DNA from: a virus
Lineage: Duplodnaviria > Heunggongvirae > Uroviricota > Caudoviricetes
Strand: one strand, 5' to 3'
IMG/VR virus record: IMGVR_UViG_3300001357_000001
Span: 64,001 to 128,000 of that record
Length of the DNA stretch: 64,000 nt
Shown here: in pieces, positions 23,657 through 63,806 of the stretch
Layout: each line of letters begins with the position of its first letter
How positions within the stretch are numbered: position 1 is the first letter of the stretch
Notes under the pieces: generated by a model
Database searches by the model: none
Seen by the model: the letters and a program-made list of their open reading frames with translations, nothing else
Told to the model about the DNA's origin: nothing
Position numbers and translations under genes: made by a program

Positions 23657-23860
23657 ACCGAAGTGGACAAATTGGTAAAGTCGCCTTGTTATGAACAGGG
23701 AGATACTCCATTCCTGAGAAGGTTGCAAACTTCACGGGCAAAGAAATATAATTGTAATATGGTAACGTTATTTGAAGCACGTGTAACCAAATTAACAAGA
23801 CTTTAGGACAACATTATTTCTTTCGAGGGGTTGTTGGTTCGAATCCTTCCTTCGGTTCTA
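23657..23860 (+). ncRNA. tRNA-like RNA (anticodon ATG) with ~130-nt structured insertion in variable region
   Basis: Acceptor ACCGAAG/CTTCGGT; D arm GAC-AAATTGGTAAA-GTC; CCTTG-TTATGAA-CAGGG; T loop GGTTCGAATCC; promoter 23607-23634 and boxA 23644. Confidence 0.7.
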
Positions 23861-42088: not shown

Positions 42089-42161
42089 TAGCGGGAACTG
42101 GACTCGAACCAGTAGATACAAGGTTATGAATCTTGCGAGTTACCAATTACTCTATCCCGCA
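42089..42161 (-). tRNA. tRNA-Met(CAT), 1:72 mismatch as in initiators
   Basis: TGCGGGA/TCCCGCT; CAAGA-TT CAT AA-CCTTG. Confidence 0.85.
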
Positions 42162-42167
42162 ATTTAG

Positions 42168-42252
42168 CGGAGGATGGGGGATTCGAACCCCCACAGGTGT
42201 TACCCTGACTTCGGTTTAGCAAACCGGTACGTTACCATTCCGTCAATCCTCC
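42168..42252 (-). tRNA. tRNA-Ser(GCT)
   Basis: GGAGGAT/ATCCTCC; CCGGT-TT GCT AA-ACCGA; long variable arm. Confidence 0.92.
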
Positions 42253-42257
42253 AATAA

Positions 42258-42672
42258 TTATTTCATTTTATTTGCTTCATTAAAGGCATAAAAAGCACCC
42301 ATGCCCTGCTGAAGATTTTCAATATATTTAATTGCTCTGCGTTTAAAAAAAAGACTCCACCAAAACAAAGTAAATCTTTGTTTTGTACTTAACCATTTTA
42401 ATGATTTTTCAAATGCTTTTTGTTGTTCTTTATCTATTTTAGTCATATTATTCTTTTTTTGGTGGAAATGCTTTTAATATATCTGGATGTGCTTCATAAC
42501 TACCCCATGTTTCACCACATTCATTATAATACCATTCAATTAATTCTTCATTAATAAATCCTTTTACTGCACTTCTAATATCTTTATATCTATAAGCATT
42601 TAACGCCTTTAGAATAATTTTTTCTATTTTTTTTGCTGTGATTTCAGCATGTATTTCACTAACTATACTCAT
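42258..42672 (-). CDS. Two small hypothetical genes (42258-42446, 42448-42672)
   Basis: Abutting ATG ORFs. Confidence 0.5.
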
Positions 42673-42677
42673 ATTAA

Positions 42678-43037
42678 TTAAATTATATCAATAACAGCAC
42701 CTAATTCTTCAAGTTCGTCTTTAATTTCTTCGGCATTAATTAATGTTGTTCCATTAATTAATTGACACGGAGCACTATCAATAATATCTTTTGCTTCTTT
42801 AAGACCAAGACCTAATAATTCTTTTATTCTCTTTAAAACAACTAACTTATTAAAACCTACATTACTTAATTGAACATTATAAATTTTATTCTCATCAGAA
42901 ACACCTATTCCAAAAGGAAATTTATAGATATTTGAGTTATAACCATATTTGTCCCAAAGGACAATATTTAAATTATCGAGTTCTTCTGAAGTTAATCTAG
43001 ATATACTACGTGCTATTTCATTTATATTTCTTTCCAT
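42678..43037 (-). CDS. rplL: Ribosomal protein L7/L12-like
   Basis: NKLVVLKRIKELLGLGLKEAKDIIDSAP...AEEIKDELEELGAVIDI. Confidence 0.8.
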   Translation of the reverse strand: MERNINEIARSISRLTSEELDNLNIVLWDKYGYNSNIYKFPFGIGVSDENKIYNVQLSNVGFNKLVVLKRIKELLGLGLKEAKDIIDSAPCQLINGTTLINAEEIKDELEELGAVIDII

Positions 43038-43041
43038 GAAT

Positions 43042-43245
43042 TTATTTCTTTATAAAATATTTGGCATAATGAAAATCGCCATCGTTTACAATCTCTGTTT
43101 CGATATTCATTGTTTTTCGTAAATCAAAGATAACTGCTGCTAATCTCATGCATCTGAATTCTGTGAGTGCCTCTAATGGAGTAATTTCATTTCCATTTAA
43201 TAAATGTTCCTTAATTAAATCTCTTTGTGTTTTTTTATTTTTCAT
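43042..43245 (-). CDS. Small helix-turn-helix protein
   Basis: TQRDLIKEHLLNGNEITPLEAL..FRCMRLAAVIFDLRK. Confidence 0.7.
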   Translation of the reverse strand: MKNKKTQRDLIKEHLLNGNEITPLEALTEFRCMRLAAVIFDLRKTMNIETEIVNDGDFHYAKYFIKK

Positions 43246-43500
43246 GATTTCATATTTTAATATTACAATAATACTAAAAATTCTTAACATTTTAATATTT
43301 TATTATACGAAAAAAGAAATAGATTGTTACAAATGTGCGTTTTTAACTACTGGCATTGATATTAAATCCATAGTATATGAACCATTGTCATAAATAGTTA
43401 CTGTTGTTATACTATTCCAAAATAAAACCGCTTTTCTATCGGCATCGGTTCTTAATTTATCCCAATTTTTAATATTTAAGTTTTTCATATAAAAAGTTTT

Positions 43501-43808
43501 AAAAAATAGCTTGAGCGTACCCAGAATTTTGTTGTTAATCATCATTTATCTATGCACCAACCCGATTATTATTGAGTTGCTTTCCCTCTAAATCTGTTTG
43601 GCTTGCACCCTCGGCAGTGCAAATGATAACTTCGGGTCTTTCGGGGATTCTGGTTTGATGAGCCTATTACAATCCCTTTTTAGCATTTCTCATCCTAACA
43701 GCTTTAACTTGTTATCTCCTGCCTTTAGCAATGGTGTCCTGAAGTTCCTCCATCTTGACATCACAATTTGTGACCTCAAAACAGCGATGAATCCTCTTAG
43801 CTATTTTT
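43501..43808 (-). ncRNA. rnpB: RNase P RNA (bacterial type, ~308 nt)
   Basis: P1 AAAAATAGCT/AGCTATTTTT; CR-I GAGGAACTTCAGG covarying with CR-V ACAAAATTCTGGGTAC (P4); GCAAGCCAAA; TAGATAAATG. Confidence 0.85.
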
Positions 43809-44281
43809 CATTTTCTTGTGTGATGGGGTAGATTGCTTTTTAGTATAATCACACAATTTTTTTTGTAATATGATTTAAATTTTCCTTCATTTAATTGGCT
43901 TTCAATTTCTCTAGTCATTTCATCATTATCATATGCTCGTTTTTCTTTTTTATTCCAAATATTACCATTTTTAGGAATATAACCTCTTAGTTTATTATCA
44001 TAACCCCAATAAATAATAAAACAAATTGGATATTCCCAATCACCACCAGCATTTACAAAAAATACATGAAATCCTTCTTTAAGTTCTCTATATCCAACAG
44101 GATATTCGGCAAATCCTTCAGTATATTTATAATCAGTGTAATTTTCACAGTCAAAATTAATTTTAGATAAATCTTGCCAAATTTTAGGTGTCATTTCATA
44201 TGGATATTCTTCATTATCCATTACTTCTTTAATTTTATTAAAAAAATCATCTTTACTAATTTCACCGTAGTATCTTGCCAT
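43808..44281 (-). CDS. Hypothetical protein (3' end uncertain, A8 run)
   Basis: ATG ORF; GGDWEYP motif. Confidence 0.6.
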   Translation of the reverse strand: MARYYGEISKDDFFNKIKEVMDNEEYPYEMTPKIWQDLSKINFDCENYTDYKYTEGFAEYPVGYRELKEGFHVFFVNAGGDWEYPICFIIYWGYDNKLRGYIPKNGNIWNKKEKRAYDNDEMTREIESQLNEGKFKSYYKKNCVIILKSNLPHHTRK

Positions 44282-44308
44282 AATTAAATATGTATTAATT
44301 AATAATTG

Positions 44309-44384
44309 AGCAGGTTATGGGACTCGAACCCACTAAATCCTTTTGCTTGGCAAGCAAATATGCAACCAGTTACACCTAACCCGC
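44309..44384 (-). tRNA. tRNA-Gly(GCC)
   Basis: GCGGGTT/AACCTGC; TTTGC-TT GCC AA-GCAAA. Confidence 0.9.
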
Positions 44385-44528
44385 ATATAGTGAAGAATAC
44401 TTAGGCAGCCACTTAATACTATGTTTCCACGTACTCATTAAACATGGTCTTTACCATATACTCTTCACTGCCTATATCATTTTAATATCGAGAACGCTTT
44501 GGTAACAAATATAGGACTTTCTCGCTCT

Positions 44529-45366
44529 TTATGGTAACAATTTAAATGTTTCCATATTTTTTCTTAATTTTTCGTTTTCAGCAATAATTGCATAATCATC
44601 TGCTTTCACATATGCTTCATGCTGATTAATTGCTTTAACGTAAAAGTTTAGAACTCTACCACTCGTAAGCGTGAGTTCAACCAGCCAATATTTCATAACT
44701 GGTTTTGCTGCTTTCTTTTTTTGTTTATTCATAATCTTAGTCTAAGCAGTAAAAGACTAAGATGTATCGTTTTCTTTTTTCATAATAAATGATTTGGTAT
44801 GTCTTCTTCGCAAATAAATACGTATTTGACATTATTTTTTCGATATTGTTTAAATTTTGAAGGTAAATCATCACAAGTACCACTATATAAATGAACACAG
44901 TGGTCGTGATAATAACCAGTTGTTTTTACCATTAAACCTTCCCAAGTATTAGCATATACAGCAATTATTTTTGTCGCCATAATTACTTTAATTTTCCCTT
45001 ATTTACTCTAGGGTTATATTTTTCCCAATGTTTTCGATATTTACTTATTTGTTTATCTAAATTAATATCAAGATTATTCTCTCTACGATGTAAAGAAGTA
45101 AATATGATTCCACTCATATCATCAGCATGAAAAATGCCTTGTGAATTGAACCACGCAACGGCAGGACCGTCATGCCATAACTGTAAAGTATTTCTAATAA
45201 ATGTACCATAACCATGATGAATCATCATAGCATCGTCTTCTGGTACTGATAACCATTTTTTAAATTTTTCACTACCTTCAGTTGAACACATATGACTTTT
45301 AACCCAATCCATACATTCATCAAGATTTCTGGTTTCTTCAATATTAAATTCTAATTTATCATCCAT
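44529..45366 (-). CDS. Small genes; 44983-45366 is DUF6794-like
   Basis: HHGYGTFIRNTLQLW...GIFHADDMSGIIF. Confidence 0.55.
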
Positions 45367-45387
45367 TTTATTGTTATTTAAATTTAG

Positions 45388-45463
45388 AACACCCGAAGGG
45401 ATTCGAACCCCCGACCCCCAAGTTCGTAGCTTGGTGCTCTAAATCCAACTGAGCTACGGGTGC
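45388..45463 (-). tRNA. tRNA-Arg(ACG)
   Basis: GCACCCG/CGGGTGT; CCAAG-CT ACG AA-CTTGG. Confidence 0.93.
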
Positions 45464-45822
45464 ATATTTGGTTTTCATCATAAGCGTAAGGATAACCAAA
45501 AACCTCGTAAACCAATGCCTTATGTTTATTTTAATAATTCAATCATTAAATCTCTTTTTCTCTCGCTATATACAATAATCATACAATGACCAGTATTATC
45601 GATAAATGCATAACCAGTTAATGGTTTATCATCAACAACTAATATTGTGTTCATTGTTTCTATTGTATATTTCATTTTAATCACAATTAATATTTAATTG
45701 ATTTGGATTCATATTAATATGTTCATATGCATCATCTTTATTATCAAATGATAAATATTCATCATAATCTTTATCATAACGTTCGGGATAATATTTATTA
45801 TTTATTTTTCTTACTCTATATT

Positions 45823-46690
45823 TCATATTAAATTATATGTTTTTGCCCATCTTCTTACAGCATTATCACTAACACCAAAAATTTTACCTATTTTTATGAA
45901 TGAATTATTATTAATTAATTTATTTAATTCTTTTTTTGATGGTCTATTTTTTACTTTTCTATCATTAATTCCTTTACAAACTTTACATCTTTTTGCTTTT
46001 TGTGTAATATTAGTACCACAATCAATACATTTGTTTTGATTAATATTTTTTTCTTTTTTGCTTTATTTCAAAATATTGTTTAGTATAAAAATTAATTTCT
46101 TCTTCATTTAAACTAAATTTTTTTAAATCATTAATTAATTGATTTATTATTTTATCTACATAAATTAAACTATAATGAATATTTATTATTTCCCAACCAT
46201 TTTCATTTAATATATTATTTCTTTCTAAATAATATTTTTTTAATGTGCCATTATTATTATAATGTTGATTACCATTAATTTCAACACCAATTAATTTATT
46301 TGGAAATGCTATATCAATACTATAATATTTATCAATCAATGGTTGATACTCTTCAATAAATGAAATATTTGCATTTTTTAATTTTTTCTTAAAAATTTCA
46401 CATGGTTTAGAAATAAATTTATTATTCATTTTCCACGGATGTTTATCTGGATTATTTTTTAAATATTTTTTACGTGCATTACTTATTTTTTTCTTACTTT
46501 CGCTGGTATGTTTAATTTTATGTAATCTCTTTATTAAATAACCTTCTTTTACCGCACGTTTTAACACAGTTAAACTAATATTAACTTTTTTAGGTAAATG
46601 AATCCAGTAAACACCCTCGTCATGTATTTTCTGAATTTTTTTCCAATCAATATTATTTAAATCTATTTTATTCATACATTCATTTTTCAT
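45823..46690 (-). CDS. DUF559/Vsr-like endonuclease with zinc-ribbon/HTH tail in a second frame (frameshift ~46045)
   Basis: IDIAFPNKLIGVEINGNQHY; other frame reads CIDCG...RCKVC...GKIFGVSDNAVRRW to TGA 45823. Confidence 0.65.
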
Positions 46691-46731
46691 ATAAATACTT
46701 TAAGTTAAGTAAATGTTCGAAAAATATTTTG

Positions 46732-46812
46732 AAGTGGTGGTGGGATTCGAACCCACATTTTCAGTTCCAATTACACGATATCGGTTTAGAAGACCGATGT
46801 GACTACACCACC
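46732..46812 (-). tRNA. Non-canonical tRNA-Arg(TCT): no D arm in normal position, D-loop-like segment after anticodon arm
   Basis: GGTGGTG-TAGTCAC-ATCGGT CT TCT AA ACCGAT-ATCGTGTAATTGGAACTGAAAAT-GTGGG TTCGAAT CCCAC-CACCACT. Confidence 0.7.
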
Positions 46813-46824
46813 ATGTTGTTGAGT

Positions 46825-47220
46825 CTATTGACTCAACATTTCTTTAACAATTGTACTAGCTGTTTTTTCATCTATTTGAGAAGCAACTGGTAATGTTTTA
46901 ATTTTACCCATTACTTTTCCCATATCTTTCATGCCTGAAAATTTATTAACATTAATAATTTCAGTAATGATATTTTTTATTTGGTTTTCATCAAGCATTT
47001 GAGGTAAATATTTTTCAAGTATTTTAACTTCATCATTATTACCTTGTTCTTTTGCATTTTCAGACATTTTACGAAGAACTTTAATTGACTGTTCATCAGT
47101 TAATTCTTTACCAATTCTTGAAAATTCCCCTGAAACAACTCTTAATAAGCTAAGTTCTTCAGTATTTTTACTTTTCATGGCATTTACCATGTCATTTTTA
47201 ATTTGTTCTTGTAATGTCAT
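46825..47220 (-). CDS. yqeY: GatB/YqeY domain protein
   Basis: MTLQEQIKNDMVNAMKSKN...EVKILEKYLPQML...MKDMGKVMG. Confidence 0.88.
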   Translation of the reverse strand: MTLQEQIKNDMVNAMKSKNTEELSLLRVVSGEFSRIGKELTDEQSIKVLRKMSENAKEQGNNDEVKILEKYLPQMLDENQIKNIITEIINVNKFSGMKDMGKVMGKIKTLPVASQIDEKTASTIVKEMLSQ

Positions 47221-47292
47221 AAGTATTATTTTTGATTGTTAATATTAATCTCGCCATTTACTCGTCATTTTGGCGAGATTGAGACGAAGATG

Positions 47293-47867
47293 TTATTTTA
47301 ATAAATCTTTTAATTGTTCTCGAACATGTGCTTTATAATTTTCAATTATTCTTATCTTTCCTCTTGCTGCTGGATGATGAATGTAATAATGTTTTATTTG
47401 TTGCTTTTTAAGCTCTCTCTCGACCTTTCTTCCCATAGCAACAACAATACCATTAAATGATTTAATGTCTTTAATATCATCCTCAAAAACGTTTTTAAAA
47501 GTTAATTTATTCCAATCTAATCCTAATGCATCAGTTGCTTTAGATAAATGTGCTGCTGCAAGTCTTCTATCCTTCCAAGTCCAACCTTTTTCAATTGCTG
47601 TTGGACTTCTTTCTTCACCAACAAATAATATGTTTTGCATAATATTTATTTTTTATATAAAACATTTTCTTTAACAATAGAAAATTTTTCTTCAGGAATA
47701 CTATCCTCTAATTTTCTAATTTGGTCTTCAATCTGTCTTTTCTTCTTGGCATCAGGACATTCACATTCATAATATAGCAAATATTCTTCATAACGACCAT
47801 CAATTTCTTTTCCACAAAATAAACAAATATTATATTCCCAAGATGAAATTATTCTTTGCTTTTCCAT
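47293..47867 (-). CDS. Hypothetical genes (47293-47640 weakly UDG-like; 47646-47867 CxxC)
   Basis: HHPAARG motif in the first. Confidence 0.5.
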
Positions 47868-47889
47868 ATTTAAATTTGTTTTATGTTTG

Positions 47890-47961
47890 CGCTCTGAGAG
47901 GGATTTGAACCCCCGACCAATAGATTAACAGTCTACTGCTCTACCACTGAGCTACCAGAGC
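47890..47961 (-). tRNA. tRNA-Asn(GTT)
   Basis: GCTCTGG/TCAGAGC; GTAGA-CT GTT AA-TCTAT. Confidence 0.93.
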
Positions 47962-48243
47962 ATTATTCAGTATTTTCGTTAATATCATCATTTACATATC
48001 CAATAACAATACCTATTACACCAATTAATAGTGATGTTGCTAATAGTTTTAAATTAAAAAATTCAATGGGTGCAAAACCCCATATTCCAGCAATAATTGA
48101 ATAAATAATACCGATAAAAAACATTGTAAATGCAATTTTTTTAACATTATCTTTTGTAAAATAATTAATGAAATTTTCAATTGTTTTAATATTTAATTTT
48201 AATTACCAAAGTTAATCAAATTATATTAAAAAACAAATAAAAG

Positions 48244-48285
48244 TTGACCCCACGAGACTCGAACTCGTAATCTCTTCGTTATGAA
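48244..48285 (-). pseudogene. 3' half only of a tRNA(CAT)
   Basis: TTCATAA-CGAAG-AGATT-ACGAG TTCGAGT CTCGT-GGGGTCA; 5' half replaced by end of HNH ORF. Confidence 0.7.
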
Positions 48286-48830
48286 TTTAATTTTTCATAA
48301 TATTTAACCCATTTCCTAATTGTATTATCTGAAACTCCATATTTTTTTCCAACAGAAACATAATTTGTTTCATTAATTTCTTTTAATAATAGTTCATAAT
48401 CAGGACGAACTACTTTTCTCTGCGATATTGAATTACATTTTTTACACCTATTATAACCATAATTAATTTCAATGCCACAATCAATGCATTTTGGTTTATT
48501 TATAGTTCGAATTGAAATAACTTTTTCATTAATGTTCTCTAACATTTTATCTAAATCGTTTATATTTAAATTGGGATGATGAGTTTCTCTATGGCAATTA
48601 GAACATAGCAAATTACATTTAGATACTTCTTCAATTAATTTAGACATTTTAGTATTTGCTAATTTCCTTACATCTAATTTAAATTCTTTTTCATTTGGGT
48701 CAATATGATGGAAATCAAATGCTGCGATATTTTTTGAATATCCACATTTTTCACATTTACCACCTTTTAATTTAATTAATTCTAATTTTCTTTTTAAACC
48801 TCTTAATTTTTGATATTCATATGTATTCAT
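48279..48830 (-). CDS. HNH endonuclease with zinc ribbon and HTH tail
   Basis: CEKCG...FDFHHIDP...CNLLCSNCHRETH. Confidence 0.88.
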   Translation of the reverse strand: MNTYEYQKLRGLKRKLELIKLKGGKCEKCGYSKNIAAFDFHHIDPNEKEFKLDVRKLANTKMSKLIEEVSKCNLLCSNCHRETHHPNLNINDLDKMLENINEKVISIRTINKPKCIDCGIEINYGYNRCKKCNSISQRKVVRPDYELLLKEINETNYVSVGKKYGVSDNTIRKWVKYYEKLNS

Positions 48831-48891
48831 AATAATGTTTTAATAATAAATACACGGAAATTATGAAAAGTATCATAAAAATAATCGTTAC

Positions 48892-48967
48892 TGGTAGTGA
48901 AGGTGGGATTCGAACCCACAACCTTGACGATATAAGCGTCCTGCGCTGACCGTTGCGCCACATCACT
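48892..48967 (-). tRNA. tRNA-Ile(TAT)
   Basis: AGTGATG/CTTCACT-A-CCA; GGACG-CT TAT AT-CGTCA. Confidence 0.88.
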
Positions 48968-49039
48968 ATATATTCTCTTTTAACCATTAGATAATTATTA
49001 GCCAAACGTTTATGAGAATTTAACACCAAATGTAATTAA

Positions 49040-49387
49040 TTATCTTCCTTCATATACCCACATAACAGCATTACAATATGCGTGTACAGCACCTTCAGTC
49101 ATTCCTGTTTCATGATTATGTTGCAATTGAATAGGATGATTTAAAAAATCAGGTGGAAATAAATCCCAATCAATTTTTTTTATTAAAATTTCTATTGGTG
49201 GAAGTTCATCTAATTTACAACCACAATAAAAACATTTATTATCTTGTTCTTCAATATATTGTTCTCTAACTAATTTTTTTTCGAAGCCTTGTAATTTTGT
49301 ATAATCAACAGGTAAATTATATTTCATATTAATAACTTTTATTTGTTCTATATCTTTCTCTTCTTTTATGTCTTCCATTACCAGCAT
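49040..49387 (-). CDS. Endonuclease VII-like HNH protein
   Basis: QDNKCFYCG...LQHNHETGMTEGAVHAYCN. Confidence 0.7.
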   Translation of the reverse strand: MLVMEDIKEEKDIEQIKVINMKYNLPVDYTKLQGFEKKLVREQYIEEQDNKCFYCGCKLDELPPIEILIKKIDWDLFPPDFLNHPIQLQHNHETGMTEGAVHAYCNAVMWVYEGR

Positions 49388-50012
49388 TGAGGGATTTATA
49401 TGTTGGAGTTAATGAATGACAATTTGGACATAGTAATTCTAAATTAGTTAAATTATTATTTTCAGAATTACCGTCTTTATGTTCTAATTCTATTGGTACT
49501 TTTCCAGTAATCGGATGTCTTTCATTCCAACCACATTTCATACATTTATTACCATGTCTTTCAATTAAATATTTTTTATATGTTTCTGAAGGATAATTAT
49601 TATAACCATTTTCTATGTTTGATTTTCGAATATTCCAATCGTATTTTACTTTACATGTTATTGAACAATATTTGATTTGACGATACGATAATTCATTATT
49701 ACACCAAATACAATATTTTTTATTACGTTTTCTTTTAACATGAATTTTATTATTTATTGTTGCAGCACATGAATTTGAACAATATTTTCTATTTTCAGAT
49801 ATTAATGAAGTAAATAATTCCCCACAATTTAAACAAGATTTTTCAATATAATAAGCATCTTTATTTTGTTTATAACCTAATTTATTTAATTTCTCTTTAA
49901 TTGCTTTTGGTGTTCTATCGATATTTTTTGATATTTCATTATACGTCATTCCGTTTTCACATAATGTTATTATTTTTTTTACGTCATAATCAGACCATCT
50001 TTTTCTTTTCAT
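49329..50012 (-). CDS. HNH endonuclease
   Basis: CMKCG...ELEHKDGNSENNNLTNLELLCPNCHS. Confidence 0.92.
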   Translation of the reverse strand: MKRKRWSDYDVKKIITLCENGMTYNEISKNIDRTPKAIKEKLNKLGYKQNKDAYYIEKSCLNCGELFTSLISENRKYCSNSCAATINNKIHVKRKRNKKYCIWCNNELSYRQIKYCSITCKVKYDWNIRKSNIENGYNNYPSETYKKYLIERHGNKCMKCGWNERHPITGKVPIELEHKDGNSENNNLTNLELLCPNCHSLTPTYKSLNAGNGRHKRRERYRTNKSY

Positions 50013-50074
50013 AATATTTATTTTATTATAAATACTATGAAAAAATAAAAAGACTAAAATCTATTTCGAAATAG

Positions 50075-50157
50075 AGCCTCCTGTCAGATTCGAACTGACG
50101 AGTTCTTTCGAAACTGGGTTACAAATCCAGCGCAATCGACCACTATGCGAAGGAGGC
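50075..50157 (-). tRNA. tRNA-Thr(TGT), long variable arm
   Basis: GCCTCCT/AGGAGGC; CTGGA-TT TGT AA-CCCAG. Confidence 0.88.
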
Positions 50158-50213
50158 ATGGAGAGGGACAGGTTATTTATACCTTTATATAGGGACTCCC
50201 TCAGACCCTTTTG

Positions 50214-50286
50214 AGCAGAAGACGGGATTCGAACCCGCAACTTTCAGATTGGAAATCTGACGCTCTGCCAATTGAGTTACTTCTGC
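50214..50286 (-). tRNA. tRNA-Gly(TCC)
   Basis: GCAGAAG/CTTCTGC; TCAGA-TT TCC AA-TCTGA. Confidence 0.93.
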
Positions 50287-50375
50287 ATTATCTCGACTTT
50301 TTACTGAATGCACTCATTCACCTGCAAGTTACAGTAGGTCTTACATTCGAGTGACCTTTAGGCGGTTTTTTTATG

Positions 50376-50450
50376 TGAGGATTCTCCGAGTTGAACGGAA
50401 GCCTACGGTTTTTCAGACCGTTGTACAATAACCACCTATACGAAATCCTC
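50376..50450 (-). tRNA. tRNA-Phe(GAA)
   Basis: GAGGATT/AATCCTC; ACGGT-CT GAA AA-ACCGT. Confidence 0.85.
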
Positions 50451-50556
50451 ATAATATTTTCACACCTTAGATTGCCTAAGTCTAAGTATTTCCCTCACTG
50501 AAGGATGCTGTGTATTTCTGGTTAAGACAAACACTTGTGTGACCAGATTTTAATTG

Positions 50557-50629
50557 TGGAATAGGAGGGATTTGAACCCCCAACCATCGGTACTTCACAC
50601 CGACACTCTACCAATTGAGTTACTATTCC
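50557..50629 (-). tRNA. tRNA-Phe(GAA), second copy (G32)
   Basis: GGAATAG/CTATTCC; TCGGT-GT GAA GT-ACCGA. Confidence 0.85.
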
Positions 50630-50699
50630 ATAAGAGGGTGAGGTCGGTCACGTATGTATGGTTGCGACCCATATCTTGCGACTCCTATTACACCCTTTG

Positions 50700-50773
50700 C
50701 GCACCCGAAGGGACTCGAACCCTTATATTCCTGATTAACAGTCAGACGCTCTAACCAATTCAGCCACAGATGC
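50700..50773 (-). tRNA. tRNA-Asn(GTT), second copy
   Basis: GCATCTG/CGGGTGC; TCTGA-CT GTT AA-TCAGG. Confidence 0.9.
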
Positions 50774-50779
50774 ATAATA

Positions 50780-50930
50780 TCCCTGCATGAGTCTTTATAC
50801 TCAATCTCTTCGTGTTATTTCGAACACAGTAATATCTCTCAAAATGTTTTGCGTTCCGTGTTGCCAACCACGGGTACAATCTAGCATTTCCCTGAATATT
50901 AAAGAGTAGCTGCTTAAAGCAAACAGGGAC
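50780..50930 (-). ncRNA. Candidate multi-hairpin RNA between tRNAs
   Basis: TCCCTG/CAGGGA closing stem; CCGTG-GTT-GGCA-AC-ACGG; GTGTT/AACAC; TGAGT/ACTCA. Confidence 0.45.
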
Positions 50931-51020
50931 TCGCACACTTTACATCAATTTATTGCTGCAACAATTAATCGTTTATAGTATTGTGTGAGAAACAATTTGA
51001 ATTGCAGTTCAAATCATTTG

Positions 51021-51103
51021 CGGAGAGTAAAGGAATCGAACCCTCGCCCCGAAGGACGGCACGGATTTCAAGTCCGCTTATCCACCATTGGATGCTACTC
51101 TCC
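51021..51103 (-). tRNA. tRNA-Ser(TGA)
   Basis: GGAGAGT/ACTCTCC; GCGGA-CT TGA AA-TCCGT. Confidence 0.93.
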
Positions 51104-51191
51104 AGTATCACTATGGAGAGGGTTTCACTCTCAATTTCATATGTAGTGACATGTATATCATATGAACCCGAACCATTTTTTATCGGCATTG

Positions 51192-51272
51192 TGGTTGGGA
51201 GGGTGGGATTTGAACCCACGTGTGACCAGACTACACTTTCTACTGCTTATCAGGCAGAGGTGATACATCCCA
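51192..51272 (-). tRNA. Non-canonical tRNA-Ile(GAT) with a D-arm-like hairpin after the anticodon arm
   Basis: TGGGATG-TATCACC-TCTGC CT GAT AA GCAGT-AGAAA-GTGT AGTCTGGTC ACAC-GTGGG TTCAAAT CCCAC-CCTCCCA-A-CCA. Confidence 0.7.
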
Positions 51273-51278
51273 ATGTTG

Positions 51279-51359
51279 AGCACGTAGAGGGATTCGAACC
51301 CCCGAACCTTTCGGATTGCTTTTGCAGAGCAACGCTTTTGACCACTCAGCAATACGTGC
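51279..51359 (-). tRNA. tRNA-Cys(GCA)
   Basis: GCACGTA/TACGTGC, U73; TTGCT-CT GCA AA-AGCAA. Confidence 0.92.
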
Positions 51360-51511
51360 ATATATGTAAAACTTTAGTCAATCATAGATTGTGCAGTAAT
51401 CACCACGTGCAGGTAGTTTTACCTGATTACCTAAACCAACATGTCAAAGAACATTAGTGCCAAACCTTATTTTTTATGATTATAAGTCTTGGCACTTATA
51501 ATTTTATGCAT

Positions 51512-51543
51512 AAAAAAACCCGAAACTTATGCTTCGGGTTTTT
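51512..51543 (-). terminator. Attenuator terminator of the large tRNA operon
   Basis: AACCCGAA-GCATAAGT-TTCGGGTT plus T-run. Confidence 0.8.
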
Positions 51544-51565
51544 GATTTTTTTAAACGATTCTTTC

Positions 51566-51697
51566 TTATATTCTAATATCATTAAAACCAGTACCCGAAT
51601 TCATATCTCTGCCAAAATTTGAACAGAATATACTATTCCCATTGCGACTAATAATTGTCGTTGACGAAATAATACTATTTATGTTTCTTGTTTCCAT
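51566..51697 (-). CDS. Leader peptide (43 aa) of the large tRNA operon
   Basis: METRNINSIISSTTIISRNGNSIFCSNFGRDMNSGTGFNDIRI; between promoter and terminator; contains antiterminator TTCGGGT. Confidence 0.8.
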   Translation of the reverse strand: METRNINSIISSTTIISRNGNSIFCSNFGRDMNSGTGFNDIRI

Positions 51698-51783
51698 TTT
51701 AATTTTATTTAAATTTTTGTAAATTTCTTTCTTCTAAATACGTGACAAAGATATAAAATGTTACATTAATACCAAACTTTTTT

Positions 51784-54646: not shown

Positions 54647-57600
54647 TTATCCACATTTGCTGTTTCCACATCCCATGCAAATCAGACAACCCTCTTTATA
54701 TTGTAAATCATTACTACCACATATAGGACAAGTACCACTGCCTTTTTCTCCGTCTTTAATAAATCTTTTTATTACACGAGCAACACCGTTTTTCCATGTA
54801 TTAATATGGTCTTCTTTAAATGTTAAAGAATCAACCAATTCATACACATATACTAACGGCATTTTATGTCTTAGTACACCAGAAATAAATTTGGCATAAT
54901 TCCAATACTCAGGGTCAAAAGCATGATTTAAACCCGTATGTACATGTTTTTCACCATCTTTATCAACGTATTCAATATCATATCTTTTTCTTTTTACTTT
55001 GGTTGTATTGCCGAACTCATCTGTTTCCTCTGTTTCAATAATATTTTTTACTACTTCACATTCTTTTAAAGTTGAAGGTAAATCACTTAATCCATTTTCA
55101 AATTTACCTGTAAAAATTTCATATGGATGACCATCTTTCATTCCAACAACAGCAATCCATTTTTCAAGATTATTTTGAAATCTATAAATTTCTGCCTTTA
55201 ATCTCTTACCTCTTTTTGGAGCATGAATTTCTTCAGGAAGTTTTTCTTCTTTTTTCTTTTCATTAGAAACCAATACACCGCTTCTCGAACCTTCACGATA
55301 AACTGTCATACCTTTACAACCAGCAGACCATCCTGTTTCATATACTTGACGAACAAGGTCTTCACTAACGTTTTCAGGTAAGTTAACTGTTACTGAAATA
55401 CTATGGTCTACGTGTTTTTGAATACGACCTTGCATTTCAACTTTCTTAACCCAATTCACATCATTTGAAGTAGCTTTATAATAAGGTGATTTTTTTACTA
55501 TTTCATCAACTTGTTCTTCTGTCATGGTTCTAACCACTTCAACATCATATTCGTTTGCTTCTAACCATGTTTCGAAATTATAGTGAAAAACAAGATATTC
55601 TTTCCAAGCAATACCTTCATCATCAATAAAATCAATTTGAATATCTTTTTCTTGTGGATTAATTTTTCTTCTTCTCTTATACACAGGTAAGAAAACTGGT
55701 TCGATTCCTGATGTTGTTTGGGTCATAAGACTTGCTGTTCCAGTAGGAGCAATTGTTAATAATGCAATGTTTCTTCTTCCGTACTTAACCATTTTATCAT
55801 ATAACTCAGGATTGGCTTCTTTAATTCGCAATATGAACGGATTATCTTTTTCACGTTTCCAATCATATATTGGGAATGCGCCACGTTCTTTAGCTAAATT
55901 AACTGATGATTCATAAGCATATAATTTTAATTTTTCATGAATATCTTCACTAAAATCATTAGCATCATCAGTACCATATGTTAATCCTAACGCAGCAAGC
56001 ATGTCGCCTTCAGCAGTAACACCTAAACCCGTTCTACGACCTTCGATTGCTTTTTCTCTGATTTTAGTCCAGAGATTAAGTTCATATAATTTAATAAATT
56101 CTTCTTCGGGGTCTGATTTAATCTTAGCAAGGATTCCATCAATTTTTTCAATTTCTAAATCAATAAGGTCATCCATGTATCGCATTGCTTTAATCACATC
56201 TTCTCTGAATAGTTCTGAATCAAAATATGCTTCGGGAGTAAATGGATTTACAACATATCCGAATAAATTTATTGCCAATAATCTACAACTATCATAAGGA
56301 CACAAAGGTATTTCACCACATCTTCGTGCTGATATTCCATTAACTATAATATTCCTACCAATATCTTCTTTTAAACAAAAAACTGGTTCATTTTCTAATA
56401 ATGTTACATTAATAATATTATCAGTAAATGATTTTTTTATTTGATAATTATGAGTATTATTAAATTTATTTTCTTTATTAGTATCACCTAAAAATCCGAT
56501 TGATGACATATAATTAACAATGCTTCCACCAAGACTAATTAATTCAAATTGGTCTTTGGTTTTATATTTAAATCTACCACCCTTTCCATTTGGAAGTTCA
56601 GTTAATTTAGAATCACGTCTTTTATAAATCCCAAAAATTAATCCATTTGAATGTAATATCATTTGAATCTTATTTAAGAAGTCTTCATTACTTTGTGATA
56701 ATCTTATTGTATATCCTGATTTGATACTTCCTTGAAGGCTACCATCAGAATACATTAATGCAGCAACATAAAATTTACCGATATTATTACTTGAATTATT
56801 AAAAATAAATTCAGGTATATGAAATTTATTTTTAAAATTAAATCCTTGTTCTTCGAAAATTTTTCCTATCCAAGCACTTCCAATTCTAATTTTATTATTT
56901 TTATGTGAAACGAAATATTTACTTAGATTTCTATTTTTATTATTTTTACGTTCACCATAAATTTCATATAGGTTATCGATGATTTCACAAACCATATTTT
57001 TCATTCTTTCGGCATCGTCACCCCAAAACTCAAAATATATTCTTTTTCTTTTTTTATCTAAAGTTCCATCACCTTGAAGTAATCCTAATAATAAACTCAA
57101 CATCTCCAATTTTGTTTCAGATTTTTTATTAATAATAGTTCCATTATTTTCTGGAATCGCTATTAAAATATTATCATTAGGTGTTAAATCTTTTGCTTCA
57201 ATCATACCTTTTGTAGTAGCAATATGATGGTCTAATGTACATCTTAATTTGAAACCTTTTGATGTTTTTATTTCAATAATTTCAGCTTCTTTTTTTGTTA
57301 AAAATACATTGCTTGCTTTTCTAACAACAGTACCGAATTCATCATTATTAATTTTCCAATTTTCAGGTTTTTCTTCACCATCATTAACATACGAAATTCT
57401 TTTATCACAAACAACATTGTTTGTTTTATTTAAATCTATTGTAACCAAATCTCCAAATTTAAAATATCCTTTTTCAGTTAATAAATATTCTGATGCAGGG
57501 AAACAAGGATTAGTACTCGTTGTTCTAAAACCGAGGTCGGCATAACAATCAGGAATACTCTCATTAATTACTTTGTCCCAAAATAATATACCGGGTTCGG

Positions 57601-58402
57601 CTGATTTCCATGCATTATGAATTATTTTTTTCCAAAGAGCAGTTGGGTTAATATCTTTACTGTACTTAGGTTCATTACTATCGATAGGATATTTTTGTTT
57701 AAAAGAATATTCATATTTTGCTGCTTTCATAAATTCATCTGTCAGTCTTACAGATACATTAGCACCTGTAACCTGACCATTAACCATTTTAGCATCAATA
57801 AAGTCTTCAGAATCAGGATGTATAATAGAAATGCTTTCCATTAATGCACCTCTACGTCCATCTTGTGCTATTTCTTTAGTACTATTTGAATATCTTTCCA
57901 TAAAAGGAACAATACCTGTACTTGATATAGCACTATTTTTTACAGGACTTCCTTTAGGGCGAACAAAAGACAAATCCAATCCAACACCACCACGTCTTTT
58001 TTGGAGTTGAACCATATCTTGGTCTAATTTTAAAATACCACCATAACTATCACTATCTTTATTGTTTCCAATTACAAAACAATTGGATAATGATACGATT
58101 TGATAGTCATTACCAATACCAGACATTGAACCACCTTGTGGAACAATTCTTTTAAATTTCTTTATTGTTTCATAAATTTCTTTTGCTGATAGCGGATTAG
58201 GATATTTAGATTCTATTCTTGCAAATTCATTTGCTAATCTCCAATGCATGTCATCTGGATTTAATTCGTAATAATTGTCATTATCTTTTAAACAATATTT
58301 TCTTATCCAGACATCAGTAGCTAATTGGTCATTATTAAAATAGGGTAGAGTTGATTTTTCGACTTGTTCTTTAGTGTAGGTTTTTCTGTTTTTTTTTATC
58401 AT
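54647..58402 (-). CDS. nrdJ: Class II (B12-dependent) ribonucleotide reductase with intein
   Basis: PQGG, SLSNCFV, RRGGVG, RRGALM, TNP|CGEIPL, RRTGLG, TIAPTGT, GCKGMTVYREGSR, C-terminal zinc ribbon. Confidence 0.92.
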   Translation of the reverse strand: MIKKNRKTYTKEQVEKSTLPYFNNDQLATDVWIRKYCLKDNDNYYELNPDDMHWRLANEFARIESKYPNPLSAKEIYETIKKFKRIVPQGGSMSGIGNDYQIVSLSNCFVIGNNKDSDSYGGILKLDQDMVQLQKRRGGVGLDLSFVRPKGSPVKNSAISSTGIVPFMERYSNSTKEIAQDGRRGALMESISIIHPDSEDFIDAKMVNGQVTGANVSVRLTDEFMKAAKYEYSFKQKYPIDSNEPKYSKDINPTALWKKIIHNAWKSAEPGILFWDKVINESIPDCYADLGFRTTSTNPCFPASEYLLTEKGYFKFGDLVTIDLNKTNNVVCDKRISYVNDGEEKPENWKINNDEFGTVVRKASNVFLTKKEAEIIEIKTSKGFKLRCTLDHHIATTKGMIEAKDLTPNDNILIAIPENNGTIINKKSETKLEMLSLLLGLLQGDGTLDKKRKRIYFEFWGDDAERMKNMVCEIIDNLYEIYGERKNNKNRNLSKYFVSHKNNKIRIGSAWIGKIFEEQGFNFKNKFHIPEFIFNNSSNNIGKFYVAALMYSDGSLQGSIKSGYTIRLSQSNEDFLNKIQMILHSNGLIFGIYKRRDSKLTELPNGKGGRFKYKTKDQFELISLGGSIVNYMSSIGFLGDTNKENKFNNTHNYQIKKSFTDNIINVTLLENEPVFCLKEDIGRNIIVNGISARRCGEIPLCPYDSCRLLAINLFGYVVNPFTPEAYFDSELFREDVIKAMRYMDDLIDLEIEKIDGILAKIKSDPEEEFIKLYELNLWTKIREKAIEGRRTGLGVTAEGDMLAALGLTYGTDDANDFSEDIHEKLKLYAYESSVNLAKERGAFPIYDWKREKDNPFILRIKEANPELYDKMVKYGRRNIALLTIAPTGTASLMTQTTSGIEPVFLPVYKRRRKINPQEKDIQIDFIDDEGIAWKEYLVFHYNFETWLEANEYDVEVVRTMTEEQVDEIVKKSPYYKATSNDVNWVKKVEMQGRIQKHVDHSISVTVNLPENVSEDLVRQVYETGWSAGCKGMTVYREGSRSGVLVSNEKKKEEKLPEEIHAPKRGKRLKAEIYRFQNNLEKWIAVVGMKDGHPYEIFTGKFENGLSDLPSTLKECEVVKNIIETEETDEFGNTTKVKRKRYDIEYVDKDGEKHVHTGLNHAFDPEYWNYAKFISGVLRHKMPLVYVYELVDSLTFKEDHINTWKNGVARVIKRFIKDGEKGSGTCPICGSNDLQYKEGCLICMGCGNSKCG
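56321..57505 (-). mobile_element. Intein (395 aa) with LAGLIDADG endonuclease at the NP/CGE active-site position
   Basis: Starts CFPASEYLLT; LLGLLQGDG and ALMYSDGS; ends VFCLKE...IIVNGISARR before C. Confidence 0.88.
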
Positions 58403-62714: not shown

Positions 62715-63806
62715 TTAAATAATTGGATTATATCCGTCAGCAAACGGTTTACTATAGACTGGTCTAATCATTTTCCAAATAATTTCATCATAAGGTCTTT
62801 TATCATATAATTTAAATAGTATTGCACGATAATCTGATTCTTTTGCTTGTTCAGCAAATTCAGCACGACTAACAATATTATTAACATGATAAATCCTTAC
62901 AAACTCTAATAATGACAGTCTTTCGATTTCATTATATTTATTTTGTAATTTAGTTATTGTTCGTCTTAACCAATCATAAAATTCATCAGGTACTCTATCG
63001 AATAATTCATCAAAATCATAATTATTTAACAAGTGTTCCCAAACAGTTAGGTTTGAAACATTTGTTAAAATACCATGTAATCTTACATATTCAGTAAATT
63101 TAACTTTAACTCTAAACCCACTAAAGAATCTAATTACAAATCCTTCACGATTTTCTTCTTCAAGTTCTTTGAGTTCATTTAATTTATTAATATTATTAAC
63201 TTTATGTTTTTTTACAACAGTAAAAAAATCAGAATATTTACCAACTAAATCTTTATAAAATAATTCAAAACCAGTACTGGTTTCAATTCTAGTTAATAAA
63301 ATTAAATCTCTTAAATCACCATAATCAACAACAATTCTATTTTCAGGATAAATTATTTCAAACAAATACGTACACTTTTTATTTAATTTAAAATAAACAT
63401 TGTTTTTAGACTCAAGCATTTTTTTTGCAACAATTGATTGTTCAGAAATAAATGAACCTCTCGATGCAACAATCCATATTTTATATAAATCATAATAAAA
63501 TAATATAATCAATGAACCATCCATTTTTTCAAAAATATCAAAATCTTGCGATAAATCAATATCAGATGGGTCGTGTTCTTCAAAATTTAAAAATTTCTGA
63601 AATGGACGTGCTAAAATATTTCCATCGGCATCAACAACCATACCACGACAAGCCATAGTATATTCATCCCAAAATCTTTTTGATTGTGCTTTAGGACTAT
63701 AATTAAGAATCCATATGTTATATTCTGGATGTTTATTTGCAACAATTAAATTATTATCAATATAATGATTTAAAGTATTCCAGTCGACTTTATTTAATAA
63801 TTTCAT
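62715..63806 (-). CDS. RNA ligase, T4 Rnl1 family
   Basis: CRG, RPFQKF.N, EKMDGS (motif I), ASRGSF, FEII, EGFVI, RVKVK. Confidence 0.9.
   Translation of the reverse strand: MKLLNKVDWNTLNHYIDNNLIVANKHPEYNIWILNYSPKAQSKRFWDEYTMACRGMVVDADGNILARPFQKFLNFEEHDPSDIDLSQDFDIFEKMDGSLIILFYYDLYKIWIVASRGSFISEQSIVAKKMLESKNNVYFKLNKKCTYLFEIIYPENRIVVDYGDLRDLILLTRIETSTGFELFYKDLVGKYSDFFTVVKKHKVNNINKLNELKELEEENREGFVIRFFSGFRVKVKFTEYVRLHGILTNVSNLTVWEHLLNNYDFDELFDRVPDEFYDWLRRTITKLQNKYNEIERLSLLEFVRIYHVNNIVSRAEFAEQAKESDYRAILFKLYDKRPYDEIIWKMIRPVYSKPFADGYNPII

Follow-up and report, generated by a model that had tools for sequence, protein, structure and literature searches.

A predicted leader-peptide attenuator in front of a multi-tRNA array in an uncultured giant phage

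The window analyzed here, a stretch of 64,000 nucleotides (nt) of phage DNA (Caudoviricetes; positions 64,001 to 128,000 of the IMG/VR record IMGVR_UViG_3300001357_000001), carries on its minus strand a short open reading frame (ORF) that is followed by an intrinsic terminator and an array of tRNA genes. The leader ORF and the terminator probably form a ribosome-mediated leader-peptide transcription attenuator, which would set the synthesis of the tRNAs by the speed at which the leader codons are decoded. From the sequence we infer that the leader is translated, that the terminator is functional, that slow decoding switches toward expression of the array, and that the whole array is a single transcription unit.

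Results

Leader codons and the tRNAs encoded behind them

A first-pass annotation, made from the DNA sequence without database searches, had proposed a 43-residue leader whose composition mirrors the tRNAs encoded downstream. The ORF is present with the translation given there (Table 1). All residues from 3 to 30 belong to the set T, R, N, I, S, G, F, C and M, outsiders occur only as E2, D31 and D40, and K, Y and L are absent, as had been claimed. Also the match at the codon level was borne out: 40 of the 43 leader codons are cognate to tRNAs of the array under permissive wobble, and 35 under strict pairing. The annotation had further suggested weighing this composition against the codon usage of the window. 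Codons readable by the array tRNAs make up 44% of the codons in the 48 long ORFs of the window, and against this background the binomial probability is 1.6e-11 for the permissive and 4e-8 for the strict count. Among the 274 ATG-ORFs of 25-80 codons in all six frames the leader ranks first (cognate fraction 0.93, next 0.81), and in real genes the cognate count reached a maximum of 32 of 43 (9,684 sliding stretches of 43 codons). A match of this extent by chance is excluded. The leader also uses rare codons that are read by the array, namely CGC (1.4% of Arg codons) as well as GGG, GGC, TCG and ACG (each about 5% of its family). All 13 anticodon classes are sampled, among them the distal isoacceptors through AUA, AGA, CGC, GGC/GGU and AGU. 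This complete coverage was rejected as independent evidence, as it is expected 20% of the time given 40 cognate codons.

The array consists of 15 minus-strand tRNA genes downstream of the leader, for exactly the nine amino acids named in the first-pass annotation (Cys, Ile, Ser, Asn, Phe, Gly, Thr, Arg and Met), and also its list of isoacceptors proved correct by Rfam and ARAGORN calls together with covariance-model alignments. Rfam detected all 15 genes and ARAGORN 12, missing Ile GAT, Ser TGA and Arg TCT. The labels that ARAGORN returned at low threshold for tRNAs otherwise missed (Tyr ATA, Phe GAA) were rejected in favor of the Rfam alignments or the anticodon loop. The anticodons of Ile GAT and Arg TCT were taken from the covariance-model alignments, and the anticodon loop of Ser TGA was read by eye. 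Ile GAT (51272-51195) and Arg TCT (46812-46732), both on the minus strand, are atypical in that the D arm is almost absent and an extra arm of 19-21 nt follows the anticodon arm. The eight proximal tRNAs follow directly. Among the seven distal ones lie small ORFs, HNH and other endonuclease-like ones, as well as an RNase P-like RNA; both groups would belong to one transcription unit. The full promoter consensus (TTTG-N17-23-TAnnTTTG), a pattern that does not cover non-consensus promoters, has no match between the terminator and the first tRNA (51511-51360).

Predicted switch between terminator and antiterminator

Transcription would start at the promoter near 51.75 kb, and after an A-rich untranslated leader a ribosome would translate the 43 codons, of which codons 3-30 would all be decoded by tRNAs encoded downstream. 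Slow decoding of any codon in this sensor stretch, for example when the infected cell is short of the cognate charged tRNA, would make the ribosome linger within codons 3-30. The antiterminator 5' strand within the ORF, referred to as region 2, would then remain free and capture the 5' arm of the terminator once this has been made, so that no terminator forms and RNA polymerase continues. Beyond the terminator, a boxA-like element probably turns the polymerase termination-resistant for the long untranslated array. Under fast decoding, the ribosome would clear the sensor and pass over or sit beyond region 2, the 13-bp terminator would form, and the transcript would end at about 51512. The unit would thereby work as an OR gate, in which slow decoding of any cognate codon induces the array, and the net effect would be a negative feedback on tRNA supply that is multivalent for nine amino acids.

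The pairing between TATG-AA-TTCGGGT of the leader and the terminator, which had been claimed earlier, was confirmed: leader nt 51605-51593 can pair with 51539-51528. Region 2 holds UUCGGGU, a copy of the terminator 3' arm, which enables it to pair with the 5' arm. In the window this duplex (-14.3 kcal/mol) is less stable than the terminator (-17.2 kcal/mol), and the antiterminator is able to form first.

Conservation and covariation in related phages

Relatives of the von Willebrand factor A (VWA) protein that adjoins the leader unit, 54-77% identical, were found on 22 IMG/VR contigs. Five of these contigs are complete genomes of 320-365 kb with 42-65 tRNA genes each, three of them with direct terminal repeats, and the window is therefore taken to derive from an uncultured giant phage. 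Cultured close relatives were not found in the GenBank phage collection, where DNA matches were at tRNA level only and protein matches of the VWA neighbor were distant (about 33%). The leader unit lies downstream of the VWA gene in 14 related loci, and five further contigs were recovered by a degenerate DNA pattern, which brings the total to at least 20 contigs. All copies share the promoter block, a region 2 of the CGGGU type and the terminator hairpin, and their ORFs comprise 39-49 codons. The window and the 14 related loci were aligned, and the counts below refer to these 15 loci.

The promoter block upstream of the leader is kept in all 15 loci, and also upstream of the unit labeled B in relatives. 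The leader frame, 39-45 codons long, is open in each locus and both other frames contain stops in each; leader insertions and deletions are multiples of three. Within the core SRNGNxIFCS, third-position changes (CGC/CGT, AAT/AAC, GGG/GGA) stay within the reading range of one tRNA. In the pooled 623 residues the amino acids S (2.9-fold), T (2.5), G (2.3), R (1.9), C (1.8), F (1.6), I (1.5) and N (1.3) are enriched, and the eleven amino acids outside the array are all depleted (0.12-0.55 fold); non-initiator Met, an array member, stands at 0.6 fold. In the N-terminal part of the leader, which is poorly conserved in sequence, 159 of 209 residues belong to the set (p = 4e-20). That this part varies in sequence yet remains within the set points to selection on composition and not to an inherited peptide motif.

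The terminator hairpin (-13 to -20 kcal/mol) is present in all 15 loci with a T run behind it, which is interrupted in L012 (TTTATTT). Its stems vary from locus to locus, and region 2 follows. The arm AGAACCCG occurs with region 2 CGGGUUCU, the arm CAAAACCCG with CGGGUUUUG, and the arm ACAAAAACCC with GGGUUUUUGU; L005 represents a compensatory case with the arm AAAGACUCG and region 2 CGAGUCUUU (GACUCG with CGAGUC). On average, region 2 pairs with its own 5' arm at -17.1 kcal/mol vs. -13.5 kcal/mol with the arms of other loci, and shuffled region 2 sequences reach -8.6 kcal/mol. The own-arm pairing was equalled by none of 20,000 random reassignments (permutation p <= 5e-5). The second conserved hairpin within the ORF carries a two-sided change in L010, UCCUG with CAGAGG.

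A truncated second copy of the leader, with its first 30 codons identical, lies about 880 nt upstream of the complete unit in L012 (13086-13178 and 13964-14101) and looks like a local duplication. The slot between the boxA-like motif and tRNA-Cys is occupied by a tRNA-Thr(GGT) in L004, L009, L010 and L011. In the window the corresponding stretch (51437-51365) is called a tRNA by neither Rfam nor ARAGORN, and by a weak local alignment it is probably a decayed tRNA that the window has in common with L001. A further side observation concerns the interior of the array, where a reduced RNase P RNA-like element was recognized at 43502-43804 on the minus strand (Rfam RF00010, 40 bits vs. a gathering score of 100, E = 3e-11 on 501 nt). 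It retains GAGGAA..UC.GG and AUAGAUAAAUG, is missing most of the specificity domain and has no overlapping ORF; no counterpart was found in the stretches fetched from L004, L010 and L016.

Four units with matching leaders and tRNA clusters

The window holds a sister unit at 60.1 kb with a promoter, a leader, a terminator, a boxA-like motif and tRNAs (Table 1). Its leader contains CGAAUCGGG, a 9-nt perfect complement of the terminator 5' arm of that unit, and behind it are only Lys and Tyr tRNAs, namely Lys CTT (with a 12-nt insert), Lys TTT, a Lys-like tRNA with the loop CCUUUAA, and Tyr GTA. This Lys/Tyr unit is kept in 13 of the fetched related loci. The region upstream of it was examined in two complete relatives. 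Both have a unit with the leader core IQHQPVQHPQ or IQPQHQPPQ followed by His, Pro and Gln tRNAs, and another unit with the leader core AVLLWDDAEE followed by Asp, Glu, Val, Leu, Ala, Trp and Met tRNAs.

When each leader was compared with each cluster in 4x4 tables, the lowest P of every leader was that for its own cluster, and enrichment was confined to the diagonal. The leader of the Cys/Ile/Ser/Asn/Phe/Gly/Thr/Arg/Met unit was highly significant in all three tables, and the Lys/Tyr leader of G001 was not significant alone (p = 0.15). The four clusters of the complete relatives jointly cover all 20 amino acids. The first-pass annotation had held that its reading would fail if the composition of orthologous leaders did not track the tRNA content. 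Leader and cluster match in four units; no convincing tracking was observed for gains of single tRNAs.

A boxA-like element follows the terminator

Behind the terminator lies the conserved element AUGUUCUUUGACA. In the window, exact copies of the 11-mer GTTCTTTGAMA are confined to the stretches behind two terminators, this one and that of the Lys/Tyr unit (60037-60027). In relatives the motif is kept after the terminators of units B, C and D, and it is present in nearly every copy of the unit described here. Published boxA consensus sequences are UGCUCUUUAACA for Escherichia coli and AUGAUCUUUGAAA for Bacillus subtilis (PMC13753749, PMC6614797). AUGUUCUUUGACA matches the B. subtilis rrn boxA consensus quoted in PMC13753749 at 11 of 13 bases. 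We regard the motif as a putative loading site for Nus factors; its position, where a long untranslated array begins, fits a single transcription unit. In this it would resemble rrn-type boxA/Nus antitermination, where the motif likewise heads a long untranslated stable-RNA operon; in contrast to that system, the phage motif lies behind a predicted regulated terminator. A second promoter after the terminator was considered, as the conserved GTTCTTTGACA contains TTTG, and was rejected as the main reading because the motif fits boxA and there is no room for a -33 box: in many loci the motif begins only 6-15 nt after the U tract.

Two further copies of the motif, each with one mismatch, were observed elsewhere in the window. 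One (40457-40447, minus strand) precedes the CUA suppressor tRNA (to 40217), with a 150-nt structured spacer between the two. The other stands before a tRNA-like gene at 23657-23858 on the plus strand (region from 23599), which has an insert of 100-130 nt and its own promoter-like block and no leader.

Points against the attenuator and alternative explanations

Several observations weigh against the proposed attenuator. The conserved peptide core SRNGNxIFCS partly overlaps the conserved RNA hairpins, and the conservation of the peptide is therefore not purely a matter of codon selection. Several orthologues have non-cognate residues (L, V, A, K at position 2) without matching tRNAs, and ACC/ACT use is alike with or without tRNA-Thr(GGT) where loci were compared by eye; fits to single-tRNA tracking are anecdotal (Ala GGC with GCC/GCT codons in L010, Leu TAA with a TTA codon in L005). 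Within the array, a sigmaA-like promoter match (48237-48207) might serve the distal tRNAs separately.

Further points arise from the geometry of the switch. The spacing between antiterminator and stop codon had been described as 25 nt and the same as in the 60.1 kb leader. This holds for the two leaders of the window (24-25 nt); across loci the spacing varies from 1 to 25 nt. In loci with region 2 ending about 10 nt or less from the stop, it is masked by a terminating ribosome, as in trp or his; region 2 of the window, 24 nt away from the stop, is not masked in this way. Transcripts were folded before the terminator 3' arm exists, with a ribosome footprint of +-15 nt as the constraint. The antiterminator formed in 13 of 15 loci with no ribosome, in 12 with a ribosome on the conserved core, and still in 9 with the ribosome placed at the stop codon. 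In this last position it removed the antiterminator in only six loci, the window not being among them. Termination under fast translation in the window needs an extra assumption, either steric exclusion by a ribosome within the loop or a helix between the ORF start and region 2 (1:2 helix). Such a 1:2 helix occurs in most folds of the orthologues and shows modest covariation (own -14.4 vs. swapped -12.5 kcal/mol, p = 0.007), and that of the window (-10.4 kcal/mol) was no better than shuffled controls.

The unit may be a real attenuator that reads the general state of translation, such as amino-acid starvation or a late global slowing of ribosomes, or that serves as a timing device, with the codon bias as a by-product of ancestry or RNA structure. 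Stalling by an uncharged tRNA and by an absent tRNA cannot be told apart from sequence, and the overlap of the peptide core with hairpins and the lack of fine-scale tracking of single tRNA gains among orthologues agree with this explanation. However, four units in one genome are each biased differently and match only their own cluster, and the bias is strongest in the poorly conserved N-terminal part, which argues for selection on composition and not for descent or structure. We therefore regard the explanation as unlikely. Alternatively, the nascent peptide might arrest its ribosome in response to a small molecule or to a factor from phage or host, as tnaC, ermCL and secM do; stalling would then be sequence-specific and not caused by hungry codons. 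The preservation of SRNGNxIFCS at the amino-acid level with synonymous third-position changes would suit such a peptide, but three other leaders have unrelated cores that again spell the amino acids of their own clusters, and arrest peptides do not normally mirror the genes they control, which makes this reading highly improbable.

It is also improbable that the ORF is a self-contained gene for a micro-protein or a small RNA, with a promoter and a terminator of its own. In this case the tRNAs would be expressed from elsewhere, for example from a weak promoter overlapping GTTCTTTGACA, and the codon match would have no regulatory meaning. Such a gene could account for the conserved core motif of the peptide; the motif behind the terminator looks like a -7 box and includes TTTG, and at 23.6 kb a tRNA-like gene that has a promoter but lacks a leader is immediately preceded by a similar motif. 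On the other hand, the covariation of region 2 with the terminator 5' arm and the match of four leaders to four clusters would be left unexplained, the 6-15 nt from U tract to motif in many loci are too little for a -33 element, and the motif is closer to the published boxA consensus than to a promoter. With respect to known cis-regulatory RNAs, no T-box was matched by Rfam in the window at the gathering threshold, nor at E <= 1 over 40000-60500. Nor did Rfam give a credible match to another known cis-regulatory RNA. Sub-threshold small-RNA matches on the 51.5 kb terminator (STnc370, STnc240 and MicC; E 0.17-0.56) were discarded as hairpin noise. Taken against these alternatives, the attenuator that reads the codons of its own tRNA array is the explanation we prefer.

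Genomic context

The window has a G+C content of 27.6% and 20 tRNA matches by Rfam, one of them with a CUA (amber-suppressor) anticodon. Bacteroidota sigmaA-type promoters follow the consensus TTTG-spacer-TAnnTTTG, and the promoter type found here (TTTG, spacer, TAnnTTTG) points to a Bacteroidota host. The other content includes VWA-domain proteins, HNH and other endonuclease-like small ORFs, a ribonucleotide reductase with an intein, and an RNA ligase gene related to Rnl1 of phage T4, an enzyme class that in T4 repairs cleaved tRNA-Lys. The first 25 kb (1-25000) contain short ORFs under the standard code, alongside the CUA suppressor tRNA elsewhere in the window; the two together may reflect a partial TAG recoding of late genes.

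Table 1. Positions of the leader unit, its predicted elements and neighboring features in the window
Feature	Positions	Strand	Remarks
Predicted promoter, Bacteroidota sigmaA type	51776-51746	-	TTTG (-33), 19-nt spacer, TATCTTTG (-7); pattern match
Conserved CGTATTTAGA	51742-51733	-	follows the promoter
Leader ORF, 43 codons and stop	51697-51566	-	predicted sensor stretch, codons 3-30 (51691-51608); stop codon 51568-51566
Small hairpin in ORF, CGAC ... GUCG	51660-51645	-	bases invariant in the alignment; paired in minimum-free-energy folds
Second conserved hairpin in ORF, UUCUG ... CAGAA	51627-51608	-	possible pause hairpin
Region 2 (antiterminator 5' strand), UAUG-AA-UUCGGGU	51605-51593	-	within codons 31-35
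Predicted intrinsic terminator	51543-51512	-	13-bp stem, 5' arm 51543-51531, 3' arm 51526-51514, U7 tract, -17.2 kcal/mol
Region 3 (within terminator)	51539-51528	-	
boxA-like element, AUGUUCUUUGACA	51455-51442	-	conserved, follows the terminator
Decayed tRNA-Thr(GGT), tentative	51437-51365	-	weak local alignment; slot between boxA-like motif and tRNA-Cys
Proximal tRNA block	51359-50074	-	transcription order: Cys GCA, Ile GAT (atypical), Ser TGA, Asn GTT, Phe GAA, Phe GAA, Gly TCC, Thr TGT
Distal tRNAs	48967-42088	-	Ile TAT, Asn GTT, Arg TCT (atypical), Arg ACG, Gly GCC, Ser GCT, Met CAT
Lys/Tyr unit	60261-59505	-	promoter, 30-codon leader (core YYYGKKSYKK), terminator, boxA-like GUUCUUUGAAA, tRNAs
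Ribonucleotide reductase large subunit with intein	54647-58402	-	LAGLIDADG domain in the intein
T4 Rnl1-like RNA ligase gene	62715-63806	-	2.5 kb upstream of the Lys/Tyr unit

Discussion

Phage tRNA genes are usually regarded as constitutive supplements to codon usage or as decoys against tRNA-cleaving defences. Leader-peptide attenuators are familiar from enterobacteria, where the ilvGMEDA (Ile/Leu/Val) and thr (Thr/Ile) leaders are multivalent and trpL, hisL, leuL and pheL each respond to a single amino acid. The unit described here has in common with these a short ORF rich in regulatory codons and, behind it, an intrinsic terminator whose 5' arm can be captured by an antiterminator. As in trp, the terminator is stabler than the antiterminator, and the choice between them would hence be kinetic; as in ilvGMEDA and thr, several amino acids would be read by one leader. 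In contrast to the classical systems, which face biosynthetic enzymes, the phage unit faces tRNA genes, and the loop would therefore close on decoding capacity itself. The phage leader samples nine amino acids and 13 anticodon classes over 28 consecutive codons, as opposed to a short run, and its region 2 is part of the ORF and ends 1-25 nt short of the stop. The phage setting, the Bacteroidota-type promoter and the boxA-like element after the terminator are further differences.

The pheST operon of E. coli, with its pheM leader, likewise places a leader-peptide attenuator on a component of the translation apparatus, but the target is an aminoacyl-tRNA synthetase and one amino acid is read. 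T-box riboswitches also sense the charging state of tRNA and choose between terminator and antiterminator. They differ in that uncharged tRNA is bound directly, translation is not needed, and synthetase and amino-acid genes are the targets. Attenuators in front of tRNA genes were not found described in full-text literature searches, and as far as can be told the application of the known mechanism of leader-peptide attenuation to tRNA genes is unpublished. Among the papers that could be searched, a feedback loop of this kind has no description for cellular or viral tRNA genes. The codons of a leader would in addition serve as a sequence-only predictor of the tRNAs that share one regulatory unit, and such leaders may provide compact, portable sensors of tRNA availability for synthetic biology.

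Whether the four units act together is a more tentative matter. It is possible, if rather doubtful, that they represent a four-channel decoding-speed homeostat of giant Bacteroidota-type phages, in which four codon-matched attenuators partition the 20 amino acids and each induces its own tRNA block once ribosomes slow on the codons concerned. As the signal would be ribosome stalling, the same homeostat would also be an inducible counter-measure to destruction of tRNAs by the host. Anticodon nucleases that attack tRNA-Lys or tRNA-Tyr would be examples, and it is these tRNAs that the unit near the Rnl1-like ligase encodes. For the single unit in front of the nine-amino-acid array, the proposed attenuator, if correct, would widen classical attenuation from one to three amino acids to nine, and the phage would be able to gauge the speed of decoding for each codon class and to correct shortages by transcription of the corresponding tRNAs.

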